Shown in pieces: positions 12,357 through 34,641 of a stretch of 64,000 nt of DNA. Both the position numbers and the translations under genes were made by a program. Numbering within the stretch: position 1 is the stretch's first letter; every line of letters begins with the position of its first letter. Source of the DNA: a virus (lineage: Duplodnaviria > Heunggongvirae > Uroviricota > Caudoviricetes); the IMG/VR virus record IMGVR_UViG_2713896908_000007. The stretch is one strand, 5' to 3'. The notes beneath the pieces are model-generated. The model saw only the letters and a program-made list of their open reading frames with translations. It did no database searches and was not told the origin of the DNA.

Positions 12357-12494
12357 ATTAAACCCATTATTGGTAAGCTTTCGTTGGTGTAATGGTAGCA
12401 CCAATGGGGCTGCTGTCAAGCGTCTTTTCTTTATAAATATAGGGAGCCATCAAAATCTGACATTAATTATCTATCGAAATATTTTGAATGACTG

Positions 12495-12520
12495 GTGAGA
12501 AGTTACTTTGCATACCATTA
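12495..12520 (+). promoter_or_regulatory. Candidate late-promoter motif (GAGAAGTTACTTTGCATACCATTACC) upstream of lydA
   Basis: Recurrent AGTTACTTTGCAT-type motif, also upstream of lyz. Confidence 0.35.
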
Positions 12521-12546
12521 CCTCCTGACAACGTAGGAGGGAACTT

Positions 12547-12876
12547 GTGCTTGACACACAGGAATTAGCTCCAGTTGCTATTGCGCTCCTGCTTTCAGTA
12601 ATTGGTGGGATAGGCACGTTCCTGATGGATGTCCGAGACGGTCGCCAGTCTGGCAATTTGTTGGGATTGGTTACGGAGATCTTTGTTGCAGTGACAGCTG
12701 GCGCGGTGGCGTACCTATTGGGGCAACACGAGGGCTGGGAGTTATCAATTACGTACTTAATGGTAACGATAGCCAGCAATAACGGTCATGAGGTGATTTC
12801 AGGGATGAAACGAGTGAATATCGATAGCATTCTGAATGTTCTTACAAGTTTGGTGAAAAAGGGAGGCGGGAAATGA
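12547..12876 (+). CDS. lydA: Holin LydA-like (109 aa, GTG start)
   Basis: AGGAGG 6 nt upstream of GTG 12547; hydrophobic helices (VAIALLLSVIGGIGTFLM, IFVAVTAGAVAYLLG); heads the lydAB-darA operon. Confidence 0.7.
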   Translation: MLDTQELAPVAIALLLSVIGGIGTFLMDVRDGRQSGNLLGLVTEIFVAVTAGAVAYLLGQHEGWELSITYLMVTIASNNGHEVISGMKRVNIDSILNVLTSLVKKGGGK

Positions 12877-13316
12877 TTGGCTGGGGTGTATGCGCTCTTG
12901 CGGCAGCCTTAGCTGATCGCTATTTGCTAAAACGCAAGGACATCACGAATTTAGAGCTTGGTGATGTGGAAATTAAACCGGGATTTATCCGGGTGCCGTT
13001 CAAATATCGGTCTAAATTCCCGTTTTTGCGCGGTGCAACGGTCAGATATTGGCTCCGTGATGTTCAGAAGCCGACGACAGTGATTGAAGGCGAACAACGT
13101 TGCCTGACGTCGGCTGAACAGGGCGAAAACAGTGAATGGTTGTACATACCCACTGAATATATGGGTAAAGGAGAACGACTGTGGCATTTCAACGTCATGG
13201 TTACGCACGGCGACTCGTTCATTAACCCGTTGTATCGGATTTTCCCTGTTACTCAGCAAATCCGCAGAAGTTACGTAATAAATCTCGCACAGGATGTGTC
13301 AGATGACGAAAAATAA
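12873..13316 (+). CDS. lydB: LydB-like holin antagonist (147 aa)
   Basis: ATGA overlap with lydA stop; position between lydA and hdf/darA. Confidence 0.6.
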   Translation: MIGWGVCALAAALADRYLLKRKDITNLELGDVEIKPGFIRVPFKYRSKFPFLRGATVRYWLRDVQKPTTVIEGEQRCLTSAEQGENSEWLYIPTEYMGKGERLWHFNVMVTHGDSFINPLYRIFPVTQQIRRSYVINLAQDVSDDEK

Positions 13317-13905
13317 GTATGCAACGGTCGATTTTGACCAGGTTAATGAAAAGGGGCTTAAATCCCTTATCACGGCGATCAATAAAACCGGTGTTACGGT
13401 AATTGAGGTTGACTCCAGCAACCGCGCAACTACGAAAGATGGCGTTAAAGTTAAAACCGCAAAGTTGGTTCTTAACGACGGACAAATTCTTGCTATACAG
13501 GTAAATGATACTGGCGATATATCGTCTGTGAAACTGAATGGAAAAGCTATTCCTAATGCTCAATCGCCAGATATCAAGACGCTTGGTACCGTCATGGGGC
13601 AAGCGGCCCACAAAAACGCTGCAAAATTCCAGAAATCACTGATCGCCAAAGCTAAACGTGTTGCCAATCCGGTAGACAAGAAACCGGCAGTTAAATCCAA
13701 CTTTCAGCGCCTGCAAGAGGCAAAACAGCGGAATGCTCAGGTGGTTGCCGCTTATAAATCCGCGCAGAACTCGGTGTCTTTCAATCAACAGCAGATCACT
13801 GATTTGCGGGCGAAGCTGGATAAGGAGACAGGTCGACTCAATAACGAAAAGGCCAGGAATGGCGAACTCAAACGCCGTCTTAAGCAACTGAAAGCAGGAA
13901 ATTAA
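13303..13905 (+). CDS. hdf: Hdf-like protein (homologue of a DarA fragment, 200 aa)
   Basis: ATG 13303 with AGGA 8 nt upstream; DGQILAIQVN and KNAAKFQK segments parallel DGQTISILFH and KNSAKFQR of the adjacent DarA-like protein. Confidence 0.7.
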   Translation: MTKNKYATVDFDQVNEKGLKSLITAINKTGVTVIEVDSSNRATTKDGVKVKTAKLVLNDGQILAIQVNDTGDISSVKLNGKAIPNAQSPDIKTLGTVMGQAAHKNAAKFQKSLIAKAKRVANPVDKKPAVKSNFQRLQEAKQRNAQVVAAYKSAQNSVSFNQQQITDLRAKLDKETGRLNNEKARNGELKRRLKQLKAGN

Positions 13906-13906
13906 C

Positions 13907-15826
13907 ATGGAACAGTTCAATATCAATAAAGGGGTGACGATCAAACCTGGGCTTGACGTGCTTCCCCCGCCAGTGACTGATGATGAATATCGCGCATTAA
14001 TGGCCGGTGAGGACCGCTATCTGATGACGGAATCCAACACCCTGGAGGAAATCGAGGCTACGTTCTTCTATGACAAGCCGATCCACTGGTGTGCTACGGA
14101 TTTACTGGAGGCGATTAGTTCTACTCGTTTGCAGTTACACCGGACCATGCAGGCATTTGTCCGGGCATTGAACCAGAAGCTGAATGGTACCGGAATCTCT
14201 GCGGGGAGTGATAAAACGGGGGATGTGGCCCAGAGCGGCGCGCGCGCGATCGGCGGCGCTGAAATTGGTCGGGCACGTAACGTTAACGGGCTGCCGGTCC
14301 TGCCAGCCATTATTCCGCTCAGTGATGGTCAGACTATCAGCATTTTGTTTCATAGCCCGACAGCGGAAAACCGGATCACCAATAGCGATACGCTGGTTGC
14401 TTTCCAGTTCTTACTGAATAAAAAAGACGTTACTCACACCGTTGCTCCGATGAGTGGACGTGATATGACGCTGGCGCAGGTCACCATGAAACTTGCCAAC
14501 CTTGCAGAGAAAAACTCGGCAAAATTCCAGCGTGCGCAGAAGAAGAAAAAAGCCCTGGTTGATGAAATAACCCAACTACAGGCTGACAGTGACCAGAAAG
14601 AGGATGCCATGAGCGACCTCGCGGATCAGGTGGCAGCGGTAGAAGGCCAGAAGGCAGATCTGGAGCAGAAAATTAACGCGGTTGCTTCGGAAGCGGATTC
14701 TCTTTATCAAGAAAATGAGCGTTTGCAGGCGGAGATTGAGCAGCTCAATCGCACTGGTGGGCGCGATACCATTGCTCCAACGGGGATGACTGGTGGGCAC
14801 TCTCGCGCGCTGACGGATCGCCTTGCCAGTATCAAAAATCGTATGCATATGGACGGGGAAGCGACGCTCAGTAATGGTGCATCAATGAAGCAATTCATTG
14901 GGGACGGCAAAGGGTATGTCCAGTTAACCGATCCGGATGGCAGCGTGTACATGATCAAGGCTAAATCCATACAGGGTGTGGACATGGCAGATGCGATCGG
15001 CAAGCTGTTTAAAGCCTATAAAGCGGGTAACGTATCGGAATATCTGGTCCAACCAGAAGAGCCTAAACCGGAAAACGTCGAACCTGAACCAGCGGAAGAT
15101 ACCGGTAGCTCTTCGCCTGAACCAGAAGTCTCTGTAGGTGCATATCGATATGCCCTGCAAATGCGTCCGGCGGCCCCAGGCGCGATACCTGAAGGTAACA
15201 AAGCAATTCTGCCGTGCCCTGATGAAGGTGACCCGTATTATGAATATGCGCGCTACGGCATTGTTACTTACGATACCCCGCTTTCTGATCAGCAAATGAG
15301 TGAGTACGACCTGAAGTTATTGCCTCGCGAGGATTCTTTCGACTTCCTGGCGAAGACACTTACTAATGGTCCGTTTGGCAAATATGCACAAAAAGCTCTG
15401 GAGCTGGCCACCAGCTCACCAGACGAGTTCCGCGTAATGCTGAAAACTCAGTTTCAAAAAACTTTCCCCAATATTGCGTTTCCGGGGGGCGCAGGCACCG
15501 AGAAAATGGTGCAGAGCATGATCAATGCATTGCAGGCCGAAGTCGGTGAGATTACTCAACCAGAATCGGCCCCGGAACAGCATGATGAAAAGGTTAGCGA
15601 AGCAGATGCAGAGGCTAATAAAGCCATTGAATATCTCAATAACGTGATGGATATGCAAAGCACTGACATGGCGGAGATCCGCAACGCCAGGGGCAATGTC
15701 AGGGAAGCGATTGCTGCCCTTCAGGCTGCCGGACGTTTTGATGAAAACGAAGAGCTGGTTAACGGCGCAGCTCGCCACCTGGCTGATCTGCTGGTAGCAA
15801 TCCAGAAAGCGGGAGGAGCGGCATGA
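13907..15826 (+). CDS. darA: DarA-like antirestriction/capsid-internal protein (639 aa)
   Basis: Large ORF after hdf in the lydAB operon; internal coiled-coil; synteny with P1 darA operon. Confidence 0.75.
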   Translation: MEQFNINKGVTIKPGLDVLPPPVTDDEYRALMAGEDRYLMTESNTLEEIEATFFYDKPIHWCATDLLEAISSTRLQLHRTMQAFVRALNQKLNGTGISAGSDKTGDVAQSGARAIGGAEIGRARNVNGLPVLPAIIPLSDGQTISILFHSPTAENRITNSDTLVAFQFLLNKKDVTHTVAPMSGRDMTLAQVTMKLANLAEKNSAKFQRAQKKKKALVDEITQLQADSDQKEDAMSDLADQVAAVEGQKADLEQKINAVASEADSLYQENERLQAEIEQLNRTGGRDTIAPTGMTGGHSRALTDRLASIKNRMHMDGEATLSNGASMKQFIGDGKGYVQLTDPDGSVYMIKAKSIQGVDMADAIGKLFKAYKAGNVSEYLVQPEEPKPENVEPEPAEDTGSSSPEPEVSVGAYRYALQMRPAAPGAIPEGNKAILPCPDEGDPYYEYARYGIVTYDTPLSDQQMSEYDLKLLPREDSFDFLAKTLTNGPFGKYAQKALELATSSPDEFRVMLKTQFQKTFPNIAFPGGAGTEKMVQSMINALQAEVGEITQPESAPEQHDEKVSEADAEANKAIEYLNNVMDMQSTDMAEIRNARGNVREAIAALQAAGRFDENEELVNGAARHLADLLVAIQKAGGAA

Positions 15827-16209
15827 CACTATCAGCTATTGAGTTAATGGACCTCAGCGATAAGTTGGATGCTCTGATGTCCAAAGCTGCTACCGCGAGT
15901 GGCATGGAGTTGCTGGATATCAGCGATGAAATTGACCAGATCATGCAACAGATGGGGTACGGCGCGTCCGGCGGCGGTAGTGGCGAGGAAAAACAACCTT
16001 CAGTACATGATGGTGTGCCAAAACTGGTTGCTGATTTCCTGGCTGATAAATTCGTCGATCAGAGCACCGATGCATTTATCGGCACCTTGCAGGACTTGAG
16101 TCAATATGTTGGCACATACATCGACCTGGACCAGGTTAAACAGCACACGGCGGCATGGATAGCCGCCAACATTAAAGAGGCTTCAGGTGTTCGCAGCAAC
16201 TCTACATGA
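15823..16209 (+). CDS. ddrA: DdrA-like protein (128 aa)
   Basis: ATGA overlap with darA stop; followed by an intrinsic terminator. Confidence 0.6.
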   Translation: MTLSAIELMDLSDKLDALMSKAATASGMELLDISDEIDQIMQQMGYGASGGGSGEEKQPSVHDGVPKLVADFLADKFVDQSTDAFIGTLQDLSQYVGTYIDLDQVKQHTAAWIAANIKEASGVRSNST

Positions 16210-16270
16210 GCTGTAGTTTTCGAAGATTCTCACAAGTTCATTTCGCGTAGGTATTTATTTAACCATTAAA

Positions 16271-16308
16271 GCCGAATGCGGCGGGCACACCACATTCGGC
16301 AATTTTTT
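16271..16308 (+). terminator. Rho-independent terminator (GCCGAATG..CATTCGGC + TTTTTT)
   Basis: 8-bp stem 16271..16300 followed by AATTTTTT; between convergent ddrA and gldA. Confidence 0.7.
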
Positions 16309-16342
16309 GAAAACTATCAATGAATTAAATAATCAGAGGGGC

Positions 16343-17446
16343 TTATTCCCACTCTTGCAGGAAACGCTGACCGTACTGGTCGGCTACCAGCAGTGCAGCA
16401 TAAACCTGATCTGGCGTTGCGCCGCCAGGCATGTTGTGGATGGTTTCACCTTCTGCACATGCCGCTTCTGCGACAATCCGCATTTTCGCCGGGATATCTT
16501 CTTTAATATCCAGTTGTGCCAGGGTAATTGGCAGGCCGACAGCATGGCACAGCGCAGCTACGGTTTCGATTTCTTCAACTGGTGCGTTTTCCAGAACCAG
16601 TTGCGTCAGCGTACCGAATGCCACTTTCTCACCGTGATAATAGTGATGCGCATCCGGAATGGCCGTCAGGCCATTGTGCACCGCGTGCGCCGCCGCCAGG
16701 CCGCCGCTTTCAAAGCCCACGCCGCTCAAATAGGTGTTAGCTTCAATCACACGTTCCAGCGCCGGAGTCACCACATGCTGTTCAGCGGCAAGCATCGCTT
16801 TTTCGCCTTCTTCCAGCAGGGTGTTGTAGCACAGTTCAGCCAGAGCCAGTGCTGCCTGAGTACATTTACCGCCCGCCATCGTGGTTGCGCCGCTGCGGGA
16901 ACAGGCACGTGCTTCAAACCAGGTTGCCAACGCATCGCCAATACCCGCCGCTAACAGACGTGCAGGTGCGCCAGCAACAATTTTGGTATCCACAATGACG
17001 CGTTCCGGGTTGTTTGGCAGCATCAGATAACGTTCAAACTCACCATCATCGGTGTAGATAACGGAAAGGGCGCTGCAAGGTGCGTCGGTTGAGGCAATGG
17101 TTGGGGCAACTGCAACAGGAACGCCCATAAAGTGTGCCAGTGCTTTGGCTGTATCGAGGGTTTTACCTCCGCCGATTCCCAGAATTGCGCTACACTGAGC
17201 ATTCTCTGCAATACCCCGCAGACGATCGATTTCATTTTGCGAACATTCACCGCCGAACGGGGCAATTTCTACCTCTATTCCAGCATCTTTAAAACTTTTC
17301 TCAATATTAGTTTGAGCAAAACCTAACACAAATTTGTCACCTACCACCAACCAATGTTCTGCCAGCGGTTTCAGGTATTCACCCAGGCGATTAATGACAT
17401 CTGCGCCTTGGATGTATTTACCCGGTGATTGAATGATGCGGTCCAT
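16343..17446 (-). CDS. gldA: Glycerol dehydrogenase (GldA/DhaD family, 367 aa)
   Basis: Full-length iron-containing alcohol dehydrogenase fold; N-terminus [30 protein letters not shown] and [14 protein letters not shown] motif; AAGGAG 5 nt upstream of ATG. Confidence 0.9.
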
Positions 17447-17517
17447 AATTGCTCCTTTAGAGATGAGTTATGCTAAATGTTTTGTTATTCCCGGATGACC
17501 TTCTGTATATATCTTAA

Positions 17518-17536
17518 GTCAACATTATAAGTTGAC
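17518..17536. promoter_or_regulatory. Inverted repeat GTCAAC-N7-GTTGAC in gldA upstream region
   Basis: Perfect 6-bp arms in the divergent intergenic region between gldA and the 562-aa gene. Confidence 0.3.
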
Positions 17537-17749
17537 GCCAATATTCCGTAGAAGAGATGTTACTTCGCGAGCAGTATGACTCCATAGGTTTCTGAGACGT
17601 TACTTTGCATATGATATTGCTGAGGCAAATACATTCAATGCCGCATTTTTGTGAGATTTTAAGCCAATCTACATCACCATTAGGTAAGAGTATCTTTTTT
17701 TGGTGGTGATGGCGCAATGTATCAGTGGACAGCATAAGGTGTAACAGGG

Positions 17750-19438
17750 ATGTGTTTGAACGATCATACAGTTATGGCCACCAGCAGCGGCTACATCGGT
17801 GTGGCACCGTATACCCGCTTGCTATTACATCAGGCATCCGGCATCAAAGATATTATTCACCTGATCAGGCTGCTTTCCCGTACAGATCCCCAGGATGAAC
17901 AGCTTGTTCAAGTGCTTGCGCATTTTGTCCGAATGCCTGTTGCCGACGTGAAAAAATGGTGCCGATTATTCGGTATCAGCAATTCGTTACTTCGCGGATT
18001 GTTAAATCACGCATCCTCCCTTGGGCGCGACGGATTTGATGAGATAGCGCAGGCGATAAAAAACGGAGATATGCCACCAGCTATTGACTGGTTTTCCATT
18101 CGCCCAACCAGGGTGAAAGCATTCCTTAGTGCGGCGCAATCAGCATCACCATTGGCAGAAATGGTTCAGAGGTTGTCGCTCATATTCACAGATCATACCG
18201 CGTTCGGTGATCTGGCTCTGGACGAGATGAAAGAAGCCTCCATTCAGTGGGCCGCTCAACAAAATGAGGTTAACTCAGACTTCTTGCCAGCATTCAGGAA
18301 GGCCGTTAGTAAAGCGGATGATGCCCGTGGAATTCTGAAGGCATTTAAGGCATTGCAAAGTCGGGTTAATAAACATGTCGGTGATATCGATGGGGTAACG
18401 GCGGAAGGCAGGGATATCCTTAAAGAGCACGGCATAACGCCAGAGTTTATTGATGAGATCAGGACGGATATGCAGCGTGAGGTCGTATCGTCCCTGCAAA
18501 TTGTAGCCAGAGCGTTGGCGGATGCTAATCCGAAGAGTGCGGCCATTGTTAACCGGGTTATTGGTGATATTGAAGCATCGGAGGGCATGGGGGCGCTGAA
18601 ACTCTTCCTTTCGCGAGCGTTTAATCCTAACGGCAATATTCTCCCTGGCATTATTGGTGAGGCTAAAAGGTATGTCAGTGAAGAAGAACTTGAGCAGCTT
18701 GACCAACTACTTAAGCGATTCTCATATAACCCGCAGACACGCTGGCAAATGAATCAGCGAAGTATGGGTTCGGTCCACGAGAAAGTGTTATCTGCCATGA
18801 ACAGTGCGATCGCAAACTCATCCGTATCTGAAGAAAAAGCTCTTGAGTGGGCCGACTCTTTTATCACGGAAGAAGTGGAAGAAGCCCGCGCTGGACAGAA
18901 TGGTGGGATAGACCTGCGCAAGGAACTTGCTGATATTTATCGCCTGACCGGCGGTAAAATTTCGACCCTATCAAAGATAATTCACCACCAGGGAAGGGCA
19001 TATGCAAATCTTAATGGTATTGTTGCTGTCAATTTGAACGATGAAAATGCAAGCGCACTGTGGCACGAGCTTGGTCATCATCTTGAGTACAGTAACCCTG
19101 GTCTGTTAGAGAAAGCCAGGTCATTCCTGAAGGCCAATGTTGAAGGGGATAAGCCATCTTTCGTTAATATCGGTGGGCGTGGTAAACCTGAATGGTGCTT
19201 CAGATCTCGATTGAGTAATATTTATATGGCGAAGGTATACCCGCCAGCCTCAGTGAGTAACTCCGGGAAAATTCGGCAGAAAGCACCGACTATTTCCAAA
19301 ACGTCAGCAACGGAAGTATTCTCTATGGCTCTTCAGTTGTATCATGACAAAGAGGCCGCTGCCGCATCACTGATGAATGGTGACGGATTGCTGGAACTGT
19401 TATTAGGTGTGGCAAAGGAGCTAAATAATGCAGATTAA
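17750..19438 (+). CDS. Hypothetical protein with C-terminal zincin-like HExxH motif (562 aa)
   Basis: WHELGHHLEY motif near residue 440; AAGGTG 8 nt upstream of ATG; no other recognised domain. Confidence 0.7.
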   Translation: MCLNDHTVMATSSGYIGVAPYTRLLLHQASGIKDIIHLIRLLSRTDPQDEQLVQVLAHFVRMPVADVKKWCRLFGISNSLLRGLLNHASSLGRDGFDEIAQAIKNGDMPPAIDWFSIRPTRVKAFLSAAQSASPLAEMVQRLSLIFTDHTAFGDLALDEMKEASIQWAAQQNEVNSDFLPAFRKAVSKADDARGILKAFKALQSRVNKHVGDIDGVTAEGRDILKEHGITPEFIDEIRTDMQREVVSSLQIVARALADANPKSAAIVNRVIGDIEASEGMGALKLFLSRAFNPNGNILPGIIGEAKRYVSEEELEQLDQLLKRFSYNPQTRWQMNQRSMGSVHEKVLSAMNSAIANSSVSEEKALEWADSFITEEVEEARAGQNGGIDLRKELADIYRLTGGKISTLSKIIHHQGRAYANLNGIVAVNLNDENASALWHELGHHLEYSNPGLLEKARSFLKANVEGDKPSFVNIGGRGKPEWCFRSRLSNIYMAKVYPPASVSNSGKIRQKAPTISKTSATEVFSMALQLYHDKEAAAASLMNGDGLLELLLGVAKELNNAD

Positions 19439-19733
19439 AATCGCAGCGCCATTAGGCGGAGATGCAATTATCGAATTTGATGATAATGAAGAAGTTTCCG
19501 GGCGTTTAAGCATTATCTCCGGTGACATTACCGAGGACATGATCGCTGAAGCCATAGCTGGAGCAAATCCCAATAGCTATATGGGATTCGTTAACTCCCT
19601 TGATGCTCCCGCAAGCGATGTTCTCCGAACGCTGCATCTTTACGCTGGCTGGTTTGTTGATTGGCCAGCAGTAGAGGGTGGCGATGAGGACGACGATGAT
19701 TTCGGTGATAATATTAATCAGATTATATTTTAA
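19428..19733 (+). CDS. Small acidic protein (101 aa), translationally coupled to upstream gene
   Basis: ATG 19428 with AAGGAG 7 nt upstream, overlapping upstream stop by 11 nt; acidic C-terminus EGGDEDDDDFGDN. Confidence 0.6.
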   Translation: MQIKIAAPLGGDAIIEFDDNEEVSGRLSIISGDITEDMIAEAIAGANPNSYMGFVNSLDAPASDVLRTLHLYAGWFVDWPAVEGGDEDDDDFGDNINQIIF

Positions 19734-19892
19734 CCCATATGAGATATAATCGTTCTAATGGCATAAAGTTAGATTGTTCTTATATTCGACTTTGTGCCAT
19801 CATTAGGACTAATCATTTAGGGGTTCTTTTAGGTAGAAATTTAGCAATACATGTTTAGTATGGCAATATTTTCTAAAGGAGTTAGGTAAAAA

Positions 19893-20771
19893 GTGAAAAG
19901 AATTATTCCTGATAAAAAATGGTTAAAAGAAGAAAGCAGTAAGCGACAAGTGCCATCAGAATGTCCCTATGCAAATTCATATCGATGTCCTAGATATCAC
20001 GAAAGTGTTATTTTGTTCTCACAGATGCAAATGATTGATGGCATGTCATATAATAAAGAGAAGGAGTTGAAACAGTTCTGGGAGAGAACCGACCTCTCTT
20101 CTTTATGTAATGGAGAAACCCCGTTGGTCTCAAAAAATGATAAAGGCGGGATTTTCTCTATAGATAATTTCTGTCCAGAAATATCGTTTAGATATTTAGG
20201 TTACTATGCAGACTATATGCTGAGATACATTGATGAAGATGCTCACACTATAGGGTATGGCATAGCTAAAAGAGATCAGAAAGAAAATGATTGGAAGTAT
20301 GATTGGTCCGAGGTCAATGCTGTTTTCTATGAGGATTGTTACCTCTTTGAGAGAGTTAAACAATTCAATAAAGAACTTCATGATAGTTTCTTTAAAAGAC
20401 TACATCCGAATATTGTAATGCAAATAAGTAGAATGGATAAGTGTTTGGACTCAAATGACCCAACCGGTGTTTTGCATGCGGCATCTAATATTCTAGAAAC
20501 AATGGCTAAAGAAATATTAGATGATCCAAATGTATTAAATAAATCGTTTGGCTCTTTTTTTGAGAAGTTTAAAAAAGAGTCAAAGTTGCCGTTAGGGTTT
20601 ATTAATGCAGTTAAAGATATTTATGACTTACGTAATAAAATACCTACTGCTGGTCATGGGGGGGTGGGGATGCCTGGGTTATCTTTATCTGATGCCATAA
20701 TGATTGCTGCATCAACAAAGGCTATTGTAGAGATTGAGTACAGAAACATTGATGTGGCTGCTATTGATTGA
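19893..20771 (+). CDS. AT-rich hypothetical protein, possible abortive-infection-type protein (292 aa)
   Basis: Low-GC Lys-rich ORF with own upstream AT-rich region and AAGGAG; C-terminal DIYDLRNKIPTAGHGG resembles Abi/HEPN-type R..H motifs (weak). Confidence 0.55.
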   Translation: MKRIIPDKKWLKEESSKRQVPSECPYANSYRCPRYHESVILFSQMQMIDGMSYNKEKELKQFWERTDLSSLCNGETPLVSKNDKGGIFSIDNFCPEISFRYLGYYADYMLRYIDEDAHTIGYGIAKRDQKENDWKYDWSEVNAVFYEDCYLFERVKQFNKELHDSFFKRLHPNIVMQISRMDKCLDSNDPTGVLHAASNILETMAKEILDDPNVLNKSFGSFFEKFKKESKLPLGFINAVKDIYDLRNKIPTAGHGGVGMPGLSLSDAIMIAASTKAIVEIEYRNIDVAAID

Positions 20772-20811
20772 GCTAATATAGCGAGGTTCCTTTTTGTATC
20801 GTTCGAATTAT

Positions 20812-20829
20812 CCCCGCCTGTCGGCGGGG
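20812..20829. terminator. GC hairpin CCCCGCC-tgtc-GGCGGGG between convergent genes (no clear U-run)
   Basis: Perfect 7-bp stem; separates 292-aa gene from 260-aa gene. Confidence 0.35.
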
Positions 20830-20835
20830 TATAAC

Positions 20836-21618
20836 TTAATCACTTTCTACCTCTTCCGTTGAGTTTTCCAATGCTGCGCGACACAATTTCCTGGCATTGG
20901 TTATAGCCACACTTTTTACCTCATCCGTCATTGTACAGGTAATGTACTGATCGAGTTCTTCAGCTCGGATGATGCTTTTCCCAATCATAAACTCTATTTG
21001 CCAGAGCAGATCGGCATCCATCGTCAGTATTTCAGCCTGGCCTTCTGGGCCTGCGGGGAAGCAAACATAAGACTGTTTGCCCAGGCCGATAACTCGACAA
21101 CTTGCTTCAAGAATTGCACGCTTGAGGTCTGACTTTGTAACTGAAACAGGTTGATTTTCACCTGTGATTACGCCGTTGGCATGGACGTGGAAGGGCATGT
21201 AGCTTGAAATTCGCTCTACTTTCCATACGCCAGCAAGCGATCCTTCATGCAGCACAATGGGGGTAACCGCGAGTTTCATCTCACCATATAACTGCTGGCA
21301 GATAGCTGGATTGCTGAATACATCCAAAGGTTCACACTCAAACAGCGGTGCAATCTGCATGAGGTCCATCATGGTCATACCAGGGGTACGAGCAGTAATG
21401 AATCTGCGCATTCCAGTATCCATTGTGCGCCAGATAGCTACACCATGCTTTTTGCTCACTTCTTCAGTAAAGCCAAGGTGGCACATGATGGTTTTTTCGA
21501 TAGCCAGATCAGAGATAGAAACCTTTTCGCCTGGCACGCCATCATTATTGATGGTCACTTCGACACTCTGGCCATTACGTAGGCGGTATTGAATGGTTTT
21601 AGTATTTTGTGCTGTCAT
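20836..21618 (-). CDS. Hypothetical protein (260 aa)
   Basis: Long ORF with no recognised motif; lies in accessory island between ssb and gldA. Confidence 0.55.
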   Translation of the reverse strand: MTAQNTKTIQYRLRNGQSVEVTINNDGVPGEKVSISDLAIEKTIMCHLGFTEEVSKKHGVAIWRTMDTGMRRFITARTPGMTMMDLMQIAPLFECEPLDVFSNPAICQQLYGEMKLAVTPIVLHEGSLAGVWKVERISSYMPFHVHANGVITGENQPVSVTKSDLKRAILEASCRVIGLGKQSYVCFPAGPEGQAEILTMDADLLWQIEFMIGKSIIRAEELDQYITCTMTDEVKSVAITNARKLCRAALENSTEEVESD

Positions 21619-21815
21619 AGTCTTTTCTCTGCTTAAAAACTGATGTATTGCGCCTTCAGGTTGGTTAGGAATGTTTTCCCACCAGCGAAAGCAATATCTC
21701 GGGGTGTTCTATTCGTTAAAATCGCGTGCCATTGCCAACTTTGGCGTTTTTTAGCGAGTTCGTGCTTTTGTTGGCGCCTGGACCACCGCTTTTCTTTCAG
21801 TCGTTTTTTACACAT

Positions 21816-24399: not shown

Positions 24400-25616
24400 T
24401 TTCGTCCGTGTATTCATTTATATACTCATTAGTTTCAATGTATTATATAGAACATGAAGCGTGCCTATAAATATCGATTCTATCCAACTCCCGAACAAAC
24501 CGAGCTATTAGCCCGGACTTTTGGGTGTGTGCGTTTTGTCTATAACAGCCTCCTTCGCTGGCGTACCGATGCATACTACGCACGCCATGAGAGGGTCGGC
24601 TATGCACAAGCCAGCGCCAAATTAACGGCACTGAAAAAAGAACCAGAATTCGCTTGGCTGAATGACGTTTCCTGCGTCCCCCTCCAGCAGTCTCTGCGCC
24701 ACCAACAAACGGCTTTTGCTAACTTTTTCGCCGGGCGTGCTGCATACCCAGTTTTTAAGAGCAAGCGGCATAAACAGGCCGCAGAACTAACTGCCAGCGC
24801 ATTTAAATACCGTGACGGCAAGCTGTACATGGCAAAGAGCAAAGAGCCGTTAGATGTTCGCTGGAGCCGTCCGTTGCCGTCTGCTCCATCCACTGTCACT
24901 ATCACCAGGGATGCTGCCGGACGATATTTTGTATCCTGTCTCTGCGAGTTTGAGCCTGTATCACTGCCGATCACCGTTTCCACGGTCGGCATTGATATTG
25001 GTTTAAAAGATTTGTTCGTCACCGATACCGGTTTCAAAACTGGCAATCCTCGACACAACGCTAAATACGCGAAGCGATTAGCAGTGTTACAGCGCAGATT
25101 GAGCAAGAAACAAAAAGGCTCAAAGAACCGCGCCAAAGCACGTTTAAAGGTTGCCCGCCTCCACGCGAGAATAGTCGATTGTCGGATGGATAACCTGCAT
25201 AAGTTGTCCCGCAAACTGATTAACGAAAACCAAGTTGTTTGCGTCGAATCCCTTAAAGTGAAAAACATGATCCGTAACCCGAAGCTGTCTAAAGCAATAG
25301 CTGACGCAGGCTGGAGCGAACTTGTACGCCAACTCCAGTACAAAGGAGAATGGGGTGGACGTAGCATTGTCGCTATCGACCAGTATTTCCCTTCTTCCAA
25401 ACGTTGCAGCAGTTGCGGCTTCACCATGCAAAAAATGCCTCTTAATATTCGTAAATGGCACTGCCCGGAATGTGGCGCAGAGCATGATCGTGATATTAAC
25501 GCGGCCCGTAATATAAAAGCTGCCGGGCTGGCAGTGTTAGCCCTTGGAGAGTCTGTAATTCCTAAGCCGCTTCATGTGGTTTAGGTCGGACTCTGTGAAT
25601 TGGGAATGTTTGCCGT
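24400..25616 (+). mobile_element. TnpB-only IS200/IS605-family insertion between pro and prt (ends not defined)
   Basis: tnpB ORF fills the pro-prt intergenic space; no terminal hairpins recognised. Confidence 0.4.
24454..25584 (+). CDS. tnpB: TnpB (IS200/IS605 OrfB, RuvC-like RNA-guided nuclease family, 376 aa)
   Basis: N-terminus MKRAYKYRFYPT; RuvC-like motifs IGIDIGL, VCVESL, HDRDINAARNI; CxxC..CxxC zinc finger. Confidence 0.9.
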   Translation: MKRAYKYRFYPTPEQTELLARTFGCVRFVYNSLLRWRTDAYYARHERVGYAQASAKLTALKKEPEFAWLNDVSCVPLQQSLRHQQTAFANFFAGRAAYPVFKSKRHKQAAELTASAFKYRDGKLYMAKSKEPLDVRWSRPLPSAPSTVTITRDAAGRYFVSCLCEFEPVSLPITVSTVGIDIGLKDLFVTDTGFKTGNPRHNAKYAKRLAVLQRRLSKKQKGSKNRAKARLKVARLHARIVDCRMDNLHKLSRKLINENQVVCVESLKVKNMIRNPKLSKAIADAGWSELVRQLQYKGEWGGRSIVAIDQYFPSSKRCSSCGFTMQKMPLNIRKWHCPECGAEHDRDINAARNIKAAGLAVLALGESVIPKPLHVV

Positions 25617-27413: not shown

Positions 27414-30400
27414 ATGAACAAGCTATCTATGGGGGTGTTTCGCTGTTCAAGCGTCAGCGAAATATTGAAATATATTAGGGCAATAACATCTCACCGAGCG
27501 CCGATTAAATACGGCGTGGAAAAGGTGGAAGGCAAAAGCTATGACCGACTGCGCCGGGAGGCGAATCAGAAGGCGATAGATTTGCTTAATTCGCTGGTGG
27601 ACGGCGCGACACTGACAGATGAACAGCGCCAGATCCTGGCTGGGTACACCGGTGAAGGCGGCATTGGCGGGTCCGTCTCCGAATATTACACACCAAAGCC
27701 GATCGCTGAAGGTGTCTGGGAGATCATGAAGCTCTACGGCGCGGACGTAGGTAACACTCTGGAACCATCGGCGGGAACCGGCGTTTTTAATGAGACAAAA
27801 CCGGTTGGTACGGTGATGACCGCGACTGAGATCAGCAGTGTTTCCGGTCGTATAAACCAGTTGTTACACCCGGAAGACAGCGTACAGATTTCCCCGTTCG
27901 AACAGCTGGCTATAAGCACGCCTAACGATTCATTCGACCATGTTGTGGGTAACGTTCCGTTCGGCGGTCGTGATAACACACGCAACATCGATAAGCCTTA
28001 CGCAGAAGAAACGGACATGGGTTCTTACTTCATGCTCCGCATGCTGGACAAGATAAAGCCAGGCGGATTCATGTGCGTGATTGTGCCGCCGTCCATTGTT
28101 TCAGGTTCAAACATGAAGCGGTTACGCCTGCGCCTATCACGGAAAGCTGAATTTCTTGGTGCCCACCGCTTGCCTACCGGTACTTTTGACGCAAACGGGA
28201 CCAGTACAGTCGTTGATGTGGTGCTGATGCGCAAACATCCGGCAGAGATGGCTGAGAAAATCCCCCAGGTGGATGAAAGCACTCTTGAATCGGCAAATGT
28301 GCTTTGGCCAACGTTTATTTCAGGCAAGTGGTTTGAAAAGGACGGACGCCGGTTTGTTCATGGTGCCCAGGAAAAGGGCTTCCAGGGGCGTATTGAGGTT
28401 CGTGCCGACGGGCAGATTGATAACCAGGCTCTTAAAACGAAGCTGATTCATCGTTTCGAAAGTCGTATCGACTGGTCTTTGCTCGATATGGCTGAACCGT
28501 CACCGACCGCAGATGTTGTTGATGAAGGGGAAATGCGCCTGATTAATGGCGTATGGCAAAAATATGCTGGTGGTCGCTGGATTGAAGCTGATGCTGGTAA
28601 GGAGCTTAAGATTGATGCTGCCAGTTATGGCGCGGATAGCTGGGAGGCTCTTCAGCGTAACCTGACTACAACAGAAGGCCGTCTCGGTATGACATTTACC
28701 CAGATGGCAAATGTCCGCGATAAGTACACCACATCAATCAGCGACGATATGGTGCAGCTGGTGGACTGGATTAACAGCCAGCCTGAAAAATACCGTGAAC
28801 GCTTGTATCGCGGGGCGATGATTGGCCGGATGTTAATTGAATATCAGGACATGAAGGCCGCCGGGCATAGTGCTGAACAAATCGAACAGCAGCGCCTTTC
28901 TCTGGTATCCCGTTTGCAGGCAGAGATTGATCGCTTTGGTAATCCTGGTCGCGGTCCTATAGCGAAATTGTCGGGGAGCGGTGCGCGCGCCTGGTTTGCT
29001 TTCCGTGGTGCGATTAAGCTGGATGGCACTATTTCTGACGAGCTGACAGGAAAGCTGGTTACGCATGATTCCAGCGCCAGTTATGACTCCACCAGCTATC
29101 AGGACACCCTGCGTTATCTCTATAGCGATCTTACCCGCGATCCAATCCAGCTCGATGATTTCCGCCTTGCGTTTACCGGCGAACTGCCAGCCAGTGATGA
29201 AGAGTTGCTTAATTTATTGGCCAGCACCCCTGGTATTGCGGTTTCACCGTATGGCGGGATTGTTCCGTTCGCCCGCGCCACCAGCGGCGACATTAACGAG
29301 ATAGTGGCTCCAAAACAGGAATTTCTTGCCACACTCCCCGACGGTCCAGTAAAGAACAACGTCCTTAATCAGCTGGCAGCGATCGAAGAGAAGCGCATCA
29401 AGACGCCAGCAGAGAATATCCGGTTTAAGCTCAATAGCCGTTGGTTTGACCGTTCCGTCATTCTGGAATTTTTGCAGGAAAACGGCTATCCGGATCTGCG
29501 CTATGTGCAGTCAGTGCAGCTGGAAGGCGACGAAATGGTTTCTGACACCTATCACGGTGGTGATGGTCTGTTCGTCGGGCACCGATACGGTGTCGTCCAG
29601 CGCAAGGATAAAGAAACAGGCGAGATCCGCTACGAGTGGGACCGTAAATCAGGTGAAAACGCGACCGGGTTCCCGGCACAGCTGGAAAAGTATCTCAATG
29701 GTGCGCGTATCGGTGGCAAAGATAGCGCGACGGCGAACGGCTACCGCGAGCAGATGGCACTGCTTGAGGACCAGTTCAATAAGTGGATCAAGACGCACGA
29801 TCGCTACGATGAACTGGTTGCCAAATACAACGATGTGTTCAATAGCAATATCCCGTATGAACACTCTGGCGATCCGCTTGGGTTGAAGGGATTAAGCGGT
29901 AAGCGCCAGCCATTTGATTACCAGAATAGCGAGGTGCGCCGACTGTCCGAAGATGGGCGCGGCATCTTGGGCTTCGGCACCGGGCTGGGTAAAACCACGA
30001 CCGCGCTGGCGCTTGAGGCGTTCAACTATGAGAACGGTCGCTCCACCCGTACTGCTTATGTAGTGCCTAAATCAGTGCTGGAAAACTGGTATTACGAAGC
30101 AAAAGAGTTCCTGAGTGAAGAGGCATTCAGTAACTACCTGTTCGTTGGTCTTGATGTGCTGATGGATGGCGATCAGATTCGCCAGGTGCCGGTGCTCGAC
30201 GAGAACGGTAAACCTGTCCTTGGCGCTGATGGCGCTCCCGTTATGCGCGATGCTCTTAAACTGGCAGATGAAGCCACTATCACAGCAAGGATGAACGCGA
30301 TTCCGCACTCAAATTACCGTGCAGTCGTGTTTACCAAAGAACAATACGCCCGCATTCCGCTACGTGATGACACCGTAGATGAGCATGCACAAGACATGCT

Positions 30401-33188: not shown

Positions 33189-34167
33189 AGCAATTCAGGA
33201 GAAAATAGCGGATGCGATCGCCAGAATGCCGGAAAAAACAAACCAGGGGGCTACTCGTAACGGGGATTCTGAACTTGAAGTCACCAATGCCATTTTCGGT
33301 ACCAATGAGTTCCGGGCGTCAGATTATGAGATCACCACAGCACAGTTTGGCACCATTGGCATTTACAGCAATAAAGACGAGATCAAGCAGGCAATGGACG
33401 CAGCAAGTGCGCGCATTGCAGCAGAACGGAAAGCCAATCTGAATCATGCAGTCGCCGCGCTGACTCAATCGTGGGTAACAGCAATCAGGGAGGCCGCCAC
33501 CACAGGAAAAATCACACCGGCAATTGCGGATGTCGTAAACGACGGCTCTAAATTTATGGATGCCTATCAAATGGATGCGGTGCAGTTGCCATCAGCCTAT
33601 GGCCAACTCAGCTATCGCATGACCTACAACCTGGTATCAATGTTTTCCGACCTTGCCATCCTTGGGCTGGTGGACCTTAACGAGGTTACGCCGGAATTGC
33701 TCAGCATGCGCAAGAACCATGTGGAGATATTGCACAGAATTAACACGGTACTTTCCGGGCGCACCGATGAAGAGAAACAGGCAGACGCTGATCGGATAAA
33801 CCTAGCCCTTGGCAACATCACGGAGGAAGAAATTGCCGCCAGAAACGAGAAACAAGAAGAGTTATCATCAATACAGGGTGATGCCACCAGCATAGCTCAG
33901 TCTCTTGGTCTGAATTATCGCGTATCCACCGCCGACCTGAAGATGATGTACGCACCAAAATTCGCCGCTGGCGAGGTATTTGGGCTTCAGGAAGCCTCAG
34001 GCATGAAAGGCGTTCTTTTCCGTGCGAAAGACGCAATCAAGGCGAAATTCGGCGCTCGCTGGCTGCCAGCGAAGGCGAAGAACAGCGATTTCCCGGGTAA
34101 CTGGTGGATTATCGAGACAAAACACAACGTGGCGGACGTTCTGGCCGTCATCCAACAATACGCATAA
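33160..34167 (+). CDS. Hypothetical protein in darB operon (335 aa; start uncertain)
   Basis: First in-frame ATG 33160 overlaps darB 3' end; track ORF starts at TTG 33139. Confidence 0.5.
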   Translation: MAMGDTLSPEAIQEKIADAIARMPEKTNQGATRNGDSELEVTNAIFGTNEFRASDYEITTAQFGTIGIYSNKDEIKQAMDAASARIAAERKANLNHAVAALTQSWVTAIREAATTGKITPAIADVVNDGSKFMDAYQMDAVQLPSAYGQLSYRMTYNLVSMFSDLAILGLVDLNEVTPELLSMRKNHVEILHRINTVLSGRTDEEKQADADRINLALGNITEEEIAARNEKQEELSSIQGDATSIAQSLGLNYRVSTADLKMMYAPKFAAGEVFGLQEASGMKGVLFRAKDAIKAKFGARWLPAKAKNSDFPGNWWIIETKHNVADVLAVIQQYA

Positions 34168-34200: not shown

Positions 34201-34641
34201 ATGGCCACACTATCTGATACAATAAAACCGAATAAAACATATCTTGAGGCGGTACTCCGTACAGCGTTGTTAGGAAAGACAGAAGACGAATACGTTGATT
34301 TCTTCCTGTCAGGGCTACGCGGGCGATTACTGAAAAATCCCCGCCTGTACCGCAGCTATGGTCCATACTGGCCGGAAATTAAAAAATTATTACTGGAGCG
34401 CGGTTATGGTAATTTCGGTCGTCTCGTTGACCGTGACGTTCGCAAAATTTACCGTTATGACCGCCCGGCGCTAACACTCATAGCCGCGACGCTCTACAGC
34501 CAGGAGCGTTTTGATAATGGTCAGATATACTCAGCCTGGCATTTACTGCCAGTGCCTGAAGAAGTTGACGACCAGGACTATGAGTTTGAGTCTTACGATT
34601 TGGAAGTTGAAGCCTTGGCACAGGCTGGAGAGAAAACTTGA
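34201..34641 (+). CDS. Ulx-like protein (146 aa)
   Basis: ORF immediately upstream of lxc/bof-like gene; track ORF starts at GTG 34189. Confidence 0.5.
   Translation: MATLSDTIKPNKTYLEAVLRTALLGKTEDEYVDFFLSGLRGRLLKNPRLYRSYGPYWPEIKKLLLERGYGNFGRLVDRDVRKIYRYDRPALTLIAATLYSQERFDNGQIYSAWHLLPVPEEVDDQDYEFESYDLEVEALAQAGEKT

Follow-up and report, generated by a model that had tools for sequence, protein, structure and literature searches.

A short, ParB-less allele of phage P1 ddrB and the coupled gene hxr in a P1-family phage-plasmid of Escherichia albertii

Background

DdrB of phage P1 is one of six head-internal proteins of the Dar ("defence against restriction") system (PMC9024508), whose components are loaded in the order Hdf/DarA, DdrA, DdrB and finally DarB/Ulx (PMC12810830). 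It was among the proteins detected in P1 virions (59.5% coverage) and is said to aid the addition of DarB to the capsid (PMC9024508), and together with DarB and Ulx it has been linked to the EcoB/EcoK phenotype (PMC12810830), with DdrB being required for the DarB-dependent protection of injected DNA against EcoB/EcoK type I restriction; these phenotypes are taken here second-hand, via PMC9024508, PMC12810830 and PMC5512222, rather than from the primary Dar paper (Piya et al. 2017). In this work we describe a shortened ddrB gene, and the small gene hxr that overlaps its 3' end, at positions 17750-19733 of IMG/VR record IMGVR_UViG_2713896908_000007, a stretch of 64,000 nucleotides that we refer to as the window.

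In the classification of Iyer, Burroughs, Anand, de Souza and Aravind (2017), P1 DdrB belongs to the phage polyvalent proteins: its N-terminus holds a DdrB-like ParB domain and its C-terminus a zincin-like metallopeptidase (MPTase) domain (PMC5512222). The P1 protein is processed to ~76 kDa, for which autoproteolysis has been proposed (PMC5512222). The P1 record labels Hxr a "possible repressor; homolog of Xre", and the literature is otherwise almost silent on it.

Results

The pair is the distal end of the P1 darA operon

By homology and gene order, the two open reading frames (ORFs) at 17750-19438 and 19428-19733 are ddrB and hxr, the distal end of the Lpa-dependent late darA anti-restriction operon of phage P1, and the pair as found here is a natural architectural variant of this known P1 system rather than a new system. 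We consider this account likely when taken as a whole, i.e., the ddrB-hxr identity together with a functional short allele and the roles proposed below. A megablast search of 17500-19900 against phage genomes returned 96-97% nucleotide identity to P1, P7 and relatives, with the matched features annotated as ddrB and hxr, and within ddrB this identity to P1/P7 holds from 17792 onward. An earlier note on this DNA had described the 562-aa ORF and the overlapping 101-aa ORF just as we find them, and had held that they could not be placed in any described family; at this level of identity, and with matches to PHROG 2299 and PHROG 2292, they are P1 ddrB and hxr. Confident homology of the large protein to a conserved P1 structural protein, which the same note had named as the outcome that would speak against its proposal, is thus what the searches returned. 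The operon features in the window are as follows.

12500..12518, plus strand: LPdar, the P1 late promoter of the darA operon, AAGTTACTT-TGCA-TACCAT, an exact match to the annotated LPdar of NC_005856
12547-12876, plus strand: lydA, ORF colinear with P1 at 97% identity
12873-13316, plus strand: lydB, ORF colinear with P1 at 97% identity
13294-13905, plus strand: hdf, ORF colinear with P1 at 97% identity
13907..15826, plus strand: darA, 639 aa, Pfam DarA_N 3.8e-42 and DarA_C 7.9e-17, 97% identical to P1 DarA
15823..16209, plus strand: ddrA, 128 aa (121 in P1), PHROG 1855 DdrA-like, 1.3e-57
17750..19438, plus strand: ddrB, short ParB-less allele, 562 aa, 61.8 kDa, ATG start, PHROG 2299, E=0
19428..19733, plus strand: hxr, 101 aa, ATG start, PHROG 2292, 2.6e-56, 91% identical to P1 Hxr

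The P1 reference order is LPdar-lydA-lydB-hdf-darA-ddrA-ddrB-hxr, with an hxr/ddrB overlap that is likewise 11 nt. In the window ddrB also follows ddrA and overlaps hxr, with a gldA cassette lying in between, and colinearity with P1 extends over both flanks (12487-16181, lydA to ddrA; 20829 onward, isaA, ssb, lyz, pro, prt and darB). The earlier note had placed the pair in a variable island; the pair itself is the conserved distal end of the operon, and it is flanked by variable segments, with the gldA insertion (16182-17730) on its upstream side and the hxr-ssb interval (19734-21815) on its downstream side. Because 15800-17900 and 17792-19733 are each 100% identical to Escherichia albertii plasmid pEA16-1_1 in a plasmid search, we assign the window by sequence identity to a P1-family phage-plasmid of Escherichia albertii.

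An in-frame deletion removes the ParB module and leaves the gene start in place

P1 DdrB (P1_gp022, YP_006491.1) has 995 aa and carries PF18763 (ddrB-ParB) at aa 36-167 (2.1e-39), for which a Pfam scan of the window protein gave no match at E<=1. The window protein aligns to positions 445-995 of 995 in PHROG 2299, so that the first 445 are absent except for 12 codons. Comparison of the junction with P1 shows that the first 37 nt of P1 ddrB have been kept, along with the start codon and the 19-nt leader.

17731..17749, plus strand: native ddrA-stop/ddrB leader, AGCATAAGGTGTAACAGGG, the same as in P1 and pEA22_2, lying 3' of the gldA insertion
17787..17791, plus strand: deletion junction of five bases; codons 1-12 are the P1 ddrB 5' end, and from 17792 the sequence is that of P1 codon ~448 on

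BLAST coordinates and sequence comparison give a net loss within ddrB of 1299 nt, or 433 codons, in frame. The C-terminal 548 aa of DdrB are kept (hereafter the C-module). Gone are the ParB domain, a linker of ~280 aa and iddB, which lies antisense within the lost DNA; the 562-aa ORF thus represents a 995-aa protein with an internal deletion.

The short allele circulates in three Escherichia species

The same 562-aa allele is present without any insertion in E. albertii pEA22_2, and a search of PLSDB found the C-module together with hxr in 487 records and the ParB module in 445. The ddrA/short-ddrB junction lacking gldA occurred in 21 PLSDB records (6 E. albertii, 10 E. coli and 5 E. fergusonii) and the junction carrying the gldA cassette in 15 records, all E. 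albertii, which puts the short allele at ~36/487 P1-like plasmids (~7%) across three Escherichia species. The nine distinct copies compared here, which come from read-archive assemblies as well as from E. albertii, E. coli and E. fergusonii, all encode an intact protein of 562 aa. Pairwise Nei-Gojobori estimates over the 548 common codons gave ratios of nonsynonymous to synonymous substitution (dN/dS) of 0.12-0.30 between short alleles, alongside 0.17 for P1 vs. P7 and 0.08-0.24 for long vs. short alleles, a test that is blind to post-deletion evolution alone because recombination has left the short alleles non-monophyletic in the C-module.

ParB-less DdrB recurs in other P1-like lineages

Our profile scan of viral contigs was dominated by near-identical P1-like loci, and the more distant lineages were found via individual distant proteins. 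Among these, Klebsiella contig L005 carries a complete dar operon whose DdrB has 558 aa, is 35% identical to the window DdrB and is colinear with it from "VGPY", with a 99-aa Hxr homologue (44% identity) directly following. The Cronobacter DdrB, at 559 aa, is also ParB-less, while closely related Enterobacter hormaechei elements encode a DdrB of 998 aa with ParB. The N-termini of the Klebsiella/Cronobacter proteins (MKSEEMQ...) differ from that of the Escherichia short allele (MSLNDQIVMTTS...), so that the two junctions are independent. On more distant contigs of ~90 kb we found both forms again, L108 having a DdrB of 980 aa with ParB and L112 one of 530 aa that is ParB-less and has a third N-terminus. 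The recurrence of ParB-less DdrB among P1-like lineages shows that the constant part of the protein is a C-module of ~550 aa and that the ParB module is facultative.

Identity between lineages is distributed unevenly along the operon, with 69-91% in the ParB module, 36-78% in Hdf, DarA and DdrA, 22-32% in the helical part of DdrB, 33-46% in its zincin part and 20-44% in Hxr. We considered a recent horizontal exchange of the ParB module as the source of this gradient (91% N-terminal vs. 31-46% C-terminal identity between P1 and Enterobacter), and set it aside since the same gradient is present in all lineage pairs, which stronger purifying selection on ParB explains equally well.

The C-module ends in a zincin domain

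The motif WHELGHHLEY, in which the earlier note had recognised a zincin-type HExxH, occupies residues 438-447 of the window DdrB, with the HExxH codons at 19064-19078. A phmmer search against 1.84 billion cluster representatives returned 323 clusters at E<=1e-3, and outside P1-like elements the region held in common is aa ~335-560.

17807..18754, plus strand: all-helical DdrB region, aa ~20-335, from AlphaFold2 secondary structure, with phmmer matches just in P1-like relatives
18755..19435, plus strand: C-terminal zincin (MPTase) domain, aa ~336-562, widely conserved, HExxH at 19064-19078

An alignment of 56 relatives, with identities down to 16-30%, has eight residues without variation (R416, H439, E440, H443, E446, E481, Y492 and E522), and it is this invariance across diverse proteins, H439, E440 and H443 included, that shows the HExxH to be no chance motif and bears out the zincin-type assignment. 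The domain partners in these relatives are consistent with a polyvalent-protein picture, ddrB-ParB being N-terminal in 13/56, in two cases with Phage_Mu_F (MuF) and in one with an inorganic pyrophosphatase (InPase) domain.

The AlphaFold2 model of DdrB has a mean predicted local distance difference test (pLDDT) of 77.9 overall and ~95 for residues 340-562, and combines an all-helical N-terminal part with an alpha/beta C-domain in which the HExxH lies on helix 435-448. The C-domain has a zincin fold in this predicted structure, and its closest fold neighbours are listed below, each with its structure identifier and the three values of the comparison.

PPEP-3, 9g0j, 8.1, 144, 3.5 A
PPEP-2, 6fpc, 7.5, 134, 3.2 A
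Certhrax lethal factor (LF)-like domain, 4fxq, 7.0, 131, 3.1 A
anthrax lethal factor, 6psn, 7.0, 142, 7.3 A
MtfA, 3dl1, 6.7, 131, 3.1 A

As modelled, the DdrB C-domain is an LF/MtfA-like gluzincin. A resemblance to ImmA/IrrE had been put forward on the strength of the motif; the domain has no Peptidase_M78/ImmA-IrrE Pfam match, and its nearest folds are instead zincins of the LF/PPEP/MtfA type. No curated peptidase or MPTase model in Pfam, MPTase-PolyVal among them, matched the window DdrB at E<=1, and a single weak Reprolysin_4 match was the only peptidase-type hit among the 56 relatives at E<=0.01, so that assignment to the MPTase class follows Iyer et al. 2017 (PMC5512222) and the predicted structure. 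Scans of DdrB and Hxr against Pfam, NCBIfam and PADLOC gave nothing usable (LPD5 at E 0.22 and MakA at E 0.21 were taken as noise), and searches of PDB sequences with the single DdrB sequence and with profiles gave just low-complexity matches to helices and one ribosomal protein (E 1.7). If active, the zincin would be a peptidase that processes DdrB itself, or else a co-packaged or host protein.

Hxr is coupled to ddrB, and its repressor label finds no support

The ddrB stop codon TAA lies at 19436-19438 and the hxr ATG at 19428. The 11-nt overlap, the perfect Shine-Dalgarno sequence and the translational coupling of a small acidic ORF that had been proposed from the letters of the window all agree with the sequence, as does the acidic tail EGGDEDDDDFGDN at the end of Hxr.

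19415..19420, plus strand: hxr Shine-Dalgarno AAGGAG, in the ddrB 3' end, 7 nt before the hxr ATG

With 21 D+E and 3 K+R, Hxr has a net charge of about -18, and its tail (aa 83-101, 19674-19730) is predicted to be disordered. Its AlphaFold2 model is a small alpha/beta domain of beta-beta-beta-alpha-alpha-beta order followed by the disordered acidic tail, for which Foldseek found no structural neighbour in the PDB. Searches with Hxr, including those with a profile of its homologues, gave no match in Pfam (helix-turn-helix (HTH) models at E<=1 included), NCBIfam, PADLOC or PDB sequences, and homology to DdrA or Ulx was dismissed at an hhalign probability of <1%. None of the tests that we ran supports the label "Xre homologue/repressor".

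Homologues of Hxr at 34-47% identity occur just on P1-like contigs of ~90 kb (Klebsiella, Cronobacter and Enterobacter) and as a Raoultella fragment. On every complete P1-like contig that we examined, hxr comes directly after ddrB, overlapping it by 8-17 nt or abutting it, and in the distant contigs L108 and L112 the ORF of ~100 aa in this position is a remote Hxr homologue (hhalign E 6e-5 and 2.5e-4, respectively). No other part of the operon evolves as fast as Hxr and the DdrB core, which diverge in parallel, the rate of Hxr being about that of the DdrB C-module. Gene order, coupling and parallel divergence together suggest that the acidic Hxr may bind the DdrB C-module and act as its inhibitor, chaperone or adaptor, a role that we find more likely than that of a repressor.

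A gldA cassette separates ddrB from ddrA and may supply a late promoter

The limits of the gldA cassette were set by comparing its junctions with P1 and with the cassette-free pEA22_2. The insertion point falls between the penultimate ddrA codon and the ddrA stop, so that the last codon of DdrA is swapped for 8 codons read from the cassette (SGVRSNST).

16182..17730, unstranded: gldA cassette, 1549 bp, between ...GAGGC and AGCATAAGG (ddrA stop region), with zero P1 bases lost
16343..17446, minus strand: gldA, glycerol / L-1,2-propanediol dehydrogenase, 367 aa, named as annotated in the identical plasmid; a metabolic moron that runs antisense to the operon
16271..16308, unstranded: hairpin 16271-16300 followed by T6 (plus strand), just after the new ddrA stop, from RNA folding
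17597..17615, plus strand: late-promoter-like site, ACGTTACTT-TGCA-TATGAT, 134 nt before the ddrB ATG, with the 13-mer GTTACTTTGCATA in common with LPdar

The cassette gene has 88-89% identity to the chromosomal gldA of E. coli and 91.6% to a copy that lies between insertion sequence (IS) remnants on a non-P1 E. coli plasmid. The hairpin folds at -18.1 kcal/mol (z -4.0) on the plus strand and -24.8 kcal/mol (z -5.2) on the minus strand, and plausibly represents a bidirectional terminator-like element that would end gldA transcription and possibly block read-through from LPdar.

The 303 bp of the cassette's right flank (17447-17749) have no match among phage genomes and consist partly of native gldA upstream DNA that is likewise present on the non-P1 plasmid. 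With the late-promoter pattern loosened at one position so as to admit the 17597-17615 site, the 64 kb contain 4 matches against 0.09 expected, two of which, besides this site, are LPdar and LPlyz. A further exact match to the pattern is AAGTTACTTCTCTTACAAT at 4929-4947 (plus strand). The 17597-17615 site is conserved in L023, a gldA plasmid diverged by 3%, and has three mismatches to its homologous counterpart upstream of gldA on the non-P1 plasmid. If the cassette ends LPdar read-through, as it may, ddrB-hxr may then need the late-promoter-like site inside it, and we regard promoter capture by the cassette as a reasonable reading of these features.

Neighbouring genes and cargo intervals

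In the window, darB (27414-34167, plus strand) and ulx (34201-34641) lie downstream of the cargo interval between hxr and ssb, and ulx is intact. On an E. coli plasmid with short ddrB, darB is intact at 2255 aa, and the idea that ddrB and darB decay together was dropped on this ground.

The ddrA/ddrB junction and the hxr-ssb interval form a cargo hotspot, which holds gldA here and porins, IS1 or PtuA-like defence pairs elsewhere; mcr-1-bearing P7-like plasmids are laid out in the same way. The hxr-ssb interval of the window encodes a 292-aa ORF (19893-20771, plus strand) with a weak resemblance to Abi_C (E 0.06) and a 260-aa PHROG 2326 protein (20836-21618, minus strand); its counterpart is isaB-IS1-isaA in P1, the porin gene nmpC in P7, and, in Cronobacter/Enterobacter relatives, a PtuA/PDC-M01-like ATPase with a 280-aa partner (L012 6529-8993). 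On a Raoultella planticola chromosome (L017 7001-9793), an 83-aa Hxr fragment stands beside the same pair of AAA_21 ATPase and 280-aa protein, among filamentous-haemagglutinin/PT-VENN toxin genes, which suggests that the defence-like pair moved jointly with the adjoining hxr 3' end. Farther downstream, between pro and prt, the window has a 376-aa TnpB/Cas12f-like ORF (24454-25584, plus strand; PADLOC Cas12f models, 2e-65) at a place that is empty in P1. In plasmid pE148-2, lyz and the head-processing gene pro have an InsQ/TnpB gene between them.

Discussion

Our analysis suggests that the short DdrB is probably a working allele of a Dar component. If so, the protein would go on being packaged into the head and supporting Dar assembly, losing just the activity associated with ParB. 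The contrary view is that the 562-aa ORF is a non-functional remnant of ddrB, kept open by in-frame chance, with hxr and the HExxH merely inherited, and RefSeq takes this side, the Prokaryotic Genome Annotation Pipeline (PGAP) marking the short allele as a pseudogene that is "incomplete; missing N-terminus". The pseudogene feature of NZ_AP024520.1 55373-57031 (L024 474-2132) and of other RefSeq P1-like plasmids begins 30 nt 3' of the real ATG, and the GenBank submitters' version of short ddrB is a 425-aa "ddrB domain protein" with an internal start. Also in favour of a remnant, the module that was lost is the best conserved part of DdrB between lineages (69-91%), plaque formation does not need ddrB, the antisense gldA insertion may sever the gene from its promoter, and darB is frameshifted in this plasmid by a 14-nt deletion relative to P1 near codon 1919 (around 33157-33167), leaving a 1924-aa ORF (27414-33188) and an out-of-frame remainder (33139-34167). 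Against it stand the retention of the native start codon and leader, the intactness of all nine distinct short alleles with dN/dS no higher than among long alleles, the spread over three Escherichia species and ~36 plasmids, the intact darB found beside a short allele elsewhere, the ParB-less orthologues kept in at least two further divergent P1-like lineages, and the late-promoter-like site upstream. We therefore rate a remnant as improbable, and the RefSeq pseudogene call is probably wrong given the nine intact copies, the dN/dS of 0.12-0.30 and the ParB-less orthologues in at least two divergent lineages.

For the small gene we weighed three explanations besides a partnership with DdrB. The reading of Hxr as an Xre-like repressor of transcription, given in the P1 GenBank record and in annotations derived from it, goes back to a note of a phage Xre repressor with which Hxr shares 28% identity across ~58 aa, and the label has since spread to many records; this reading is hardly credible for a protein that finds no HTH, other Pfam, NCBIfam or PDB-sequence match even at E<=1-10, is predicted to adopt a beta-beta-beta-alpha-alpha-beta fold with an acidic tail in place of the five-helix Xre fold, brings up no HTH structures among its Foldseek results, has an acidic-to-basic balance awkward for DNA binding, and is encoded by the distal gene of a late operon. 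An Hxr that acts alone as a DNA-mimic antirestriction or anti-defence protein (Ocr/ArdA-like in principle), late or injected, and that is linked to ddrB through operon economy, would suit a small and fast-evolving protein of such charge in a "defence against restriction" operon, and absence from the virion proteome is weak evidence for a protein whose 3 K/R give about one suitable tryptic peptide. We nevertheless think this unlikely, if somewhat less so than a ddrB remnant, as Foldseek shows no likeness to Ocr, ArdA or any solved structure, the acidic residues cluster in a disordered tail instead of spreading over a DNA-shaped surface, the literature covered, which does not include the primary Dar paper (Piya 2017), attributes no antirestriction phenotype to hxr, and the strict coupling of hxr to the ddrB stop is kept even where other operon junctions vary. 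Finally, a larger enzyme gene translationally coupled to that of a small acidic partner, the rapid co-divergence of both proteins, and an adjoining hxr-ssb interval that is a defence-like cargo hotspot with PDC-M01/PtuA-like pairs in relatives could together describe a toxin/immunity or protease/antitoxin module, in which a toxic DdrB zincin is neutralised by Hxr and serves addiction, abortive infection or inter-element conflict outside the virion. This is very unlikely, since every lineage has the two genes within the late morphogenesis/antirestriction operon, behind LPdar, DdrB is abundant in the virion (the coverage cited above), knockdown of hxr alone by CRISPR interference (CRISPRi) left an efficiency of plating of ~1.6 (PMC10695390) and unmasked no toxicity, neither protein has a PADLOC or Pfam match at the thresholds searched, and a large-then-small gene order is equally typical of assembly partners. 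Among the options that the earlier note had listed, anti-defence or injected polyvalent effector thus agrees with published DdrB, and toxin/immunity finds no support, in view of the late-operon setting and the CRISPRi null result.

Several observations weigh against a functional short DdrB partnered by Hxr. In addition to the PGAP annotation, recombination between long and short alleles is evident and weakens the dN/dS test, the C-module of some short alleles being nearer to that of P1 than to those of other short alleles. The frameshift in darB means that the main Dar effector may be truncated in this plasmid, and the pathway that DdrB is said to serve may already be broken here. CRISPRi found both ddrB and hxr to be non-essential, knockdown of either having no plating phenotype on a non-restricting host, and Hxr is not among the listed P1 virion proteins (PMC10695390 and PMC9024508, respectively). 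Confidence in the Hxr model is modest (pLDDT 67.5), and the proposed Hxr-DdrB interaction is drawn from gene order, coupling and parallel divergence. As to promoter capture, the pattern had to be loosened as described, and the site derives from native gldA upstream DNA, so that its likeness to LPdar may be fortuitous.

Going further, we can only tentatively propose that Hxr is an unrecognised seventh Dar component, a fast-evolving acidic partner that binds the DdrB core and controls its protease activity or head loading, a possibility to which we give less than even weight. Were it true, the recurrent independent losses of ParB in at least 3 P1-like lineages would make the ParB enzyme an optional and possibly host-counter-selected payload, the DdrB-core/Hxr pair would be the indispensable unit, and the gldA insertion would have been tolerated since three base changes turned its upstream DNA into an Lpa-type late promoter that re-drives ddrB-hxr.

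The present findings alone leave the understanding of antirestriction unchanged, and their by-products are modest: a pseudogene call that is probably wrong, a repressor label that found no support and a possible partnership of DdrB with Hxr. The ParB-less ddrB nonetheless amounts to a natural domain-deletion experiment that can tell which half of DdrB serves DarB packaging and antirestriction, in an allele that is present in ~7% of the P1-like plasmids sequenced and that annotation routinely flags, probably in error, as a pseudogene. Hxr, whose repressor label no test supports, is invariably coupled to ddrB and diverges in parallel with it, which makes it a candidate partner in the Dar system.

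Comparison with known systems

Relative to the LF-like gluzincins (PPEP-2/3, LF, Certhrax and MtfA), the DdrB C-domain shares the HExxH and downstream invariant Tyr and Glu, but identity is 11-15%, a sequence-level relationship is not detectable and the spacing of the Tyr/Glu candidates differs; moreover, DdrB is internal to a phage head, whereas those proteins are secreted toxins or cytoplasmic regulators. It also sits with the zincin-like MPTases of polyvalent proteins, to which the DdrB C-domain has been assigned (PMC5512222), in that its HExxH core is invariant and its relatives are fused to ddrB-ParB, MuF and InPase, while the window allele lacks a second recognised domain and hence is no longer polyvalent. 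With P1 Hxr (P1_gp021, YP_006490.1; PHROG 2292), the window protein has 91% identity, a length within one residue, the ddrB overlap and the acidic tail in common, and there is no substantive difference between them; just the interpretation of the Xre label changes. The closest counterpart of the large protein is P1/P7 DdrB, with ~95-98% amino-acid identity across the common C-terminal 548-550 aa and the same operon place between ddrA and hxr, start codon, leader, 11-nt hxr overlap and HExxH domain. The window allele differs from it in lacking residues ~13-445, and thus PF18763, the linker and iddB, and in being parted from ddrA by the 1.5-kb antisense gldA cassette.

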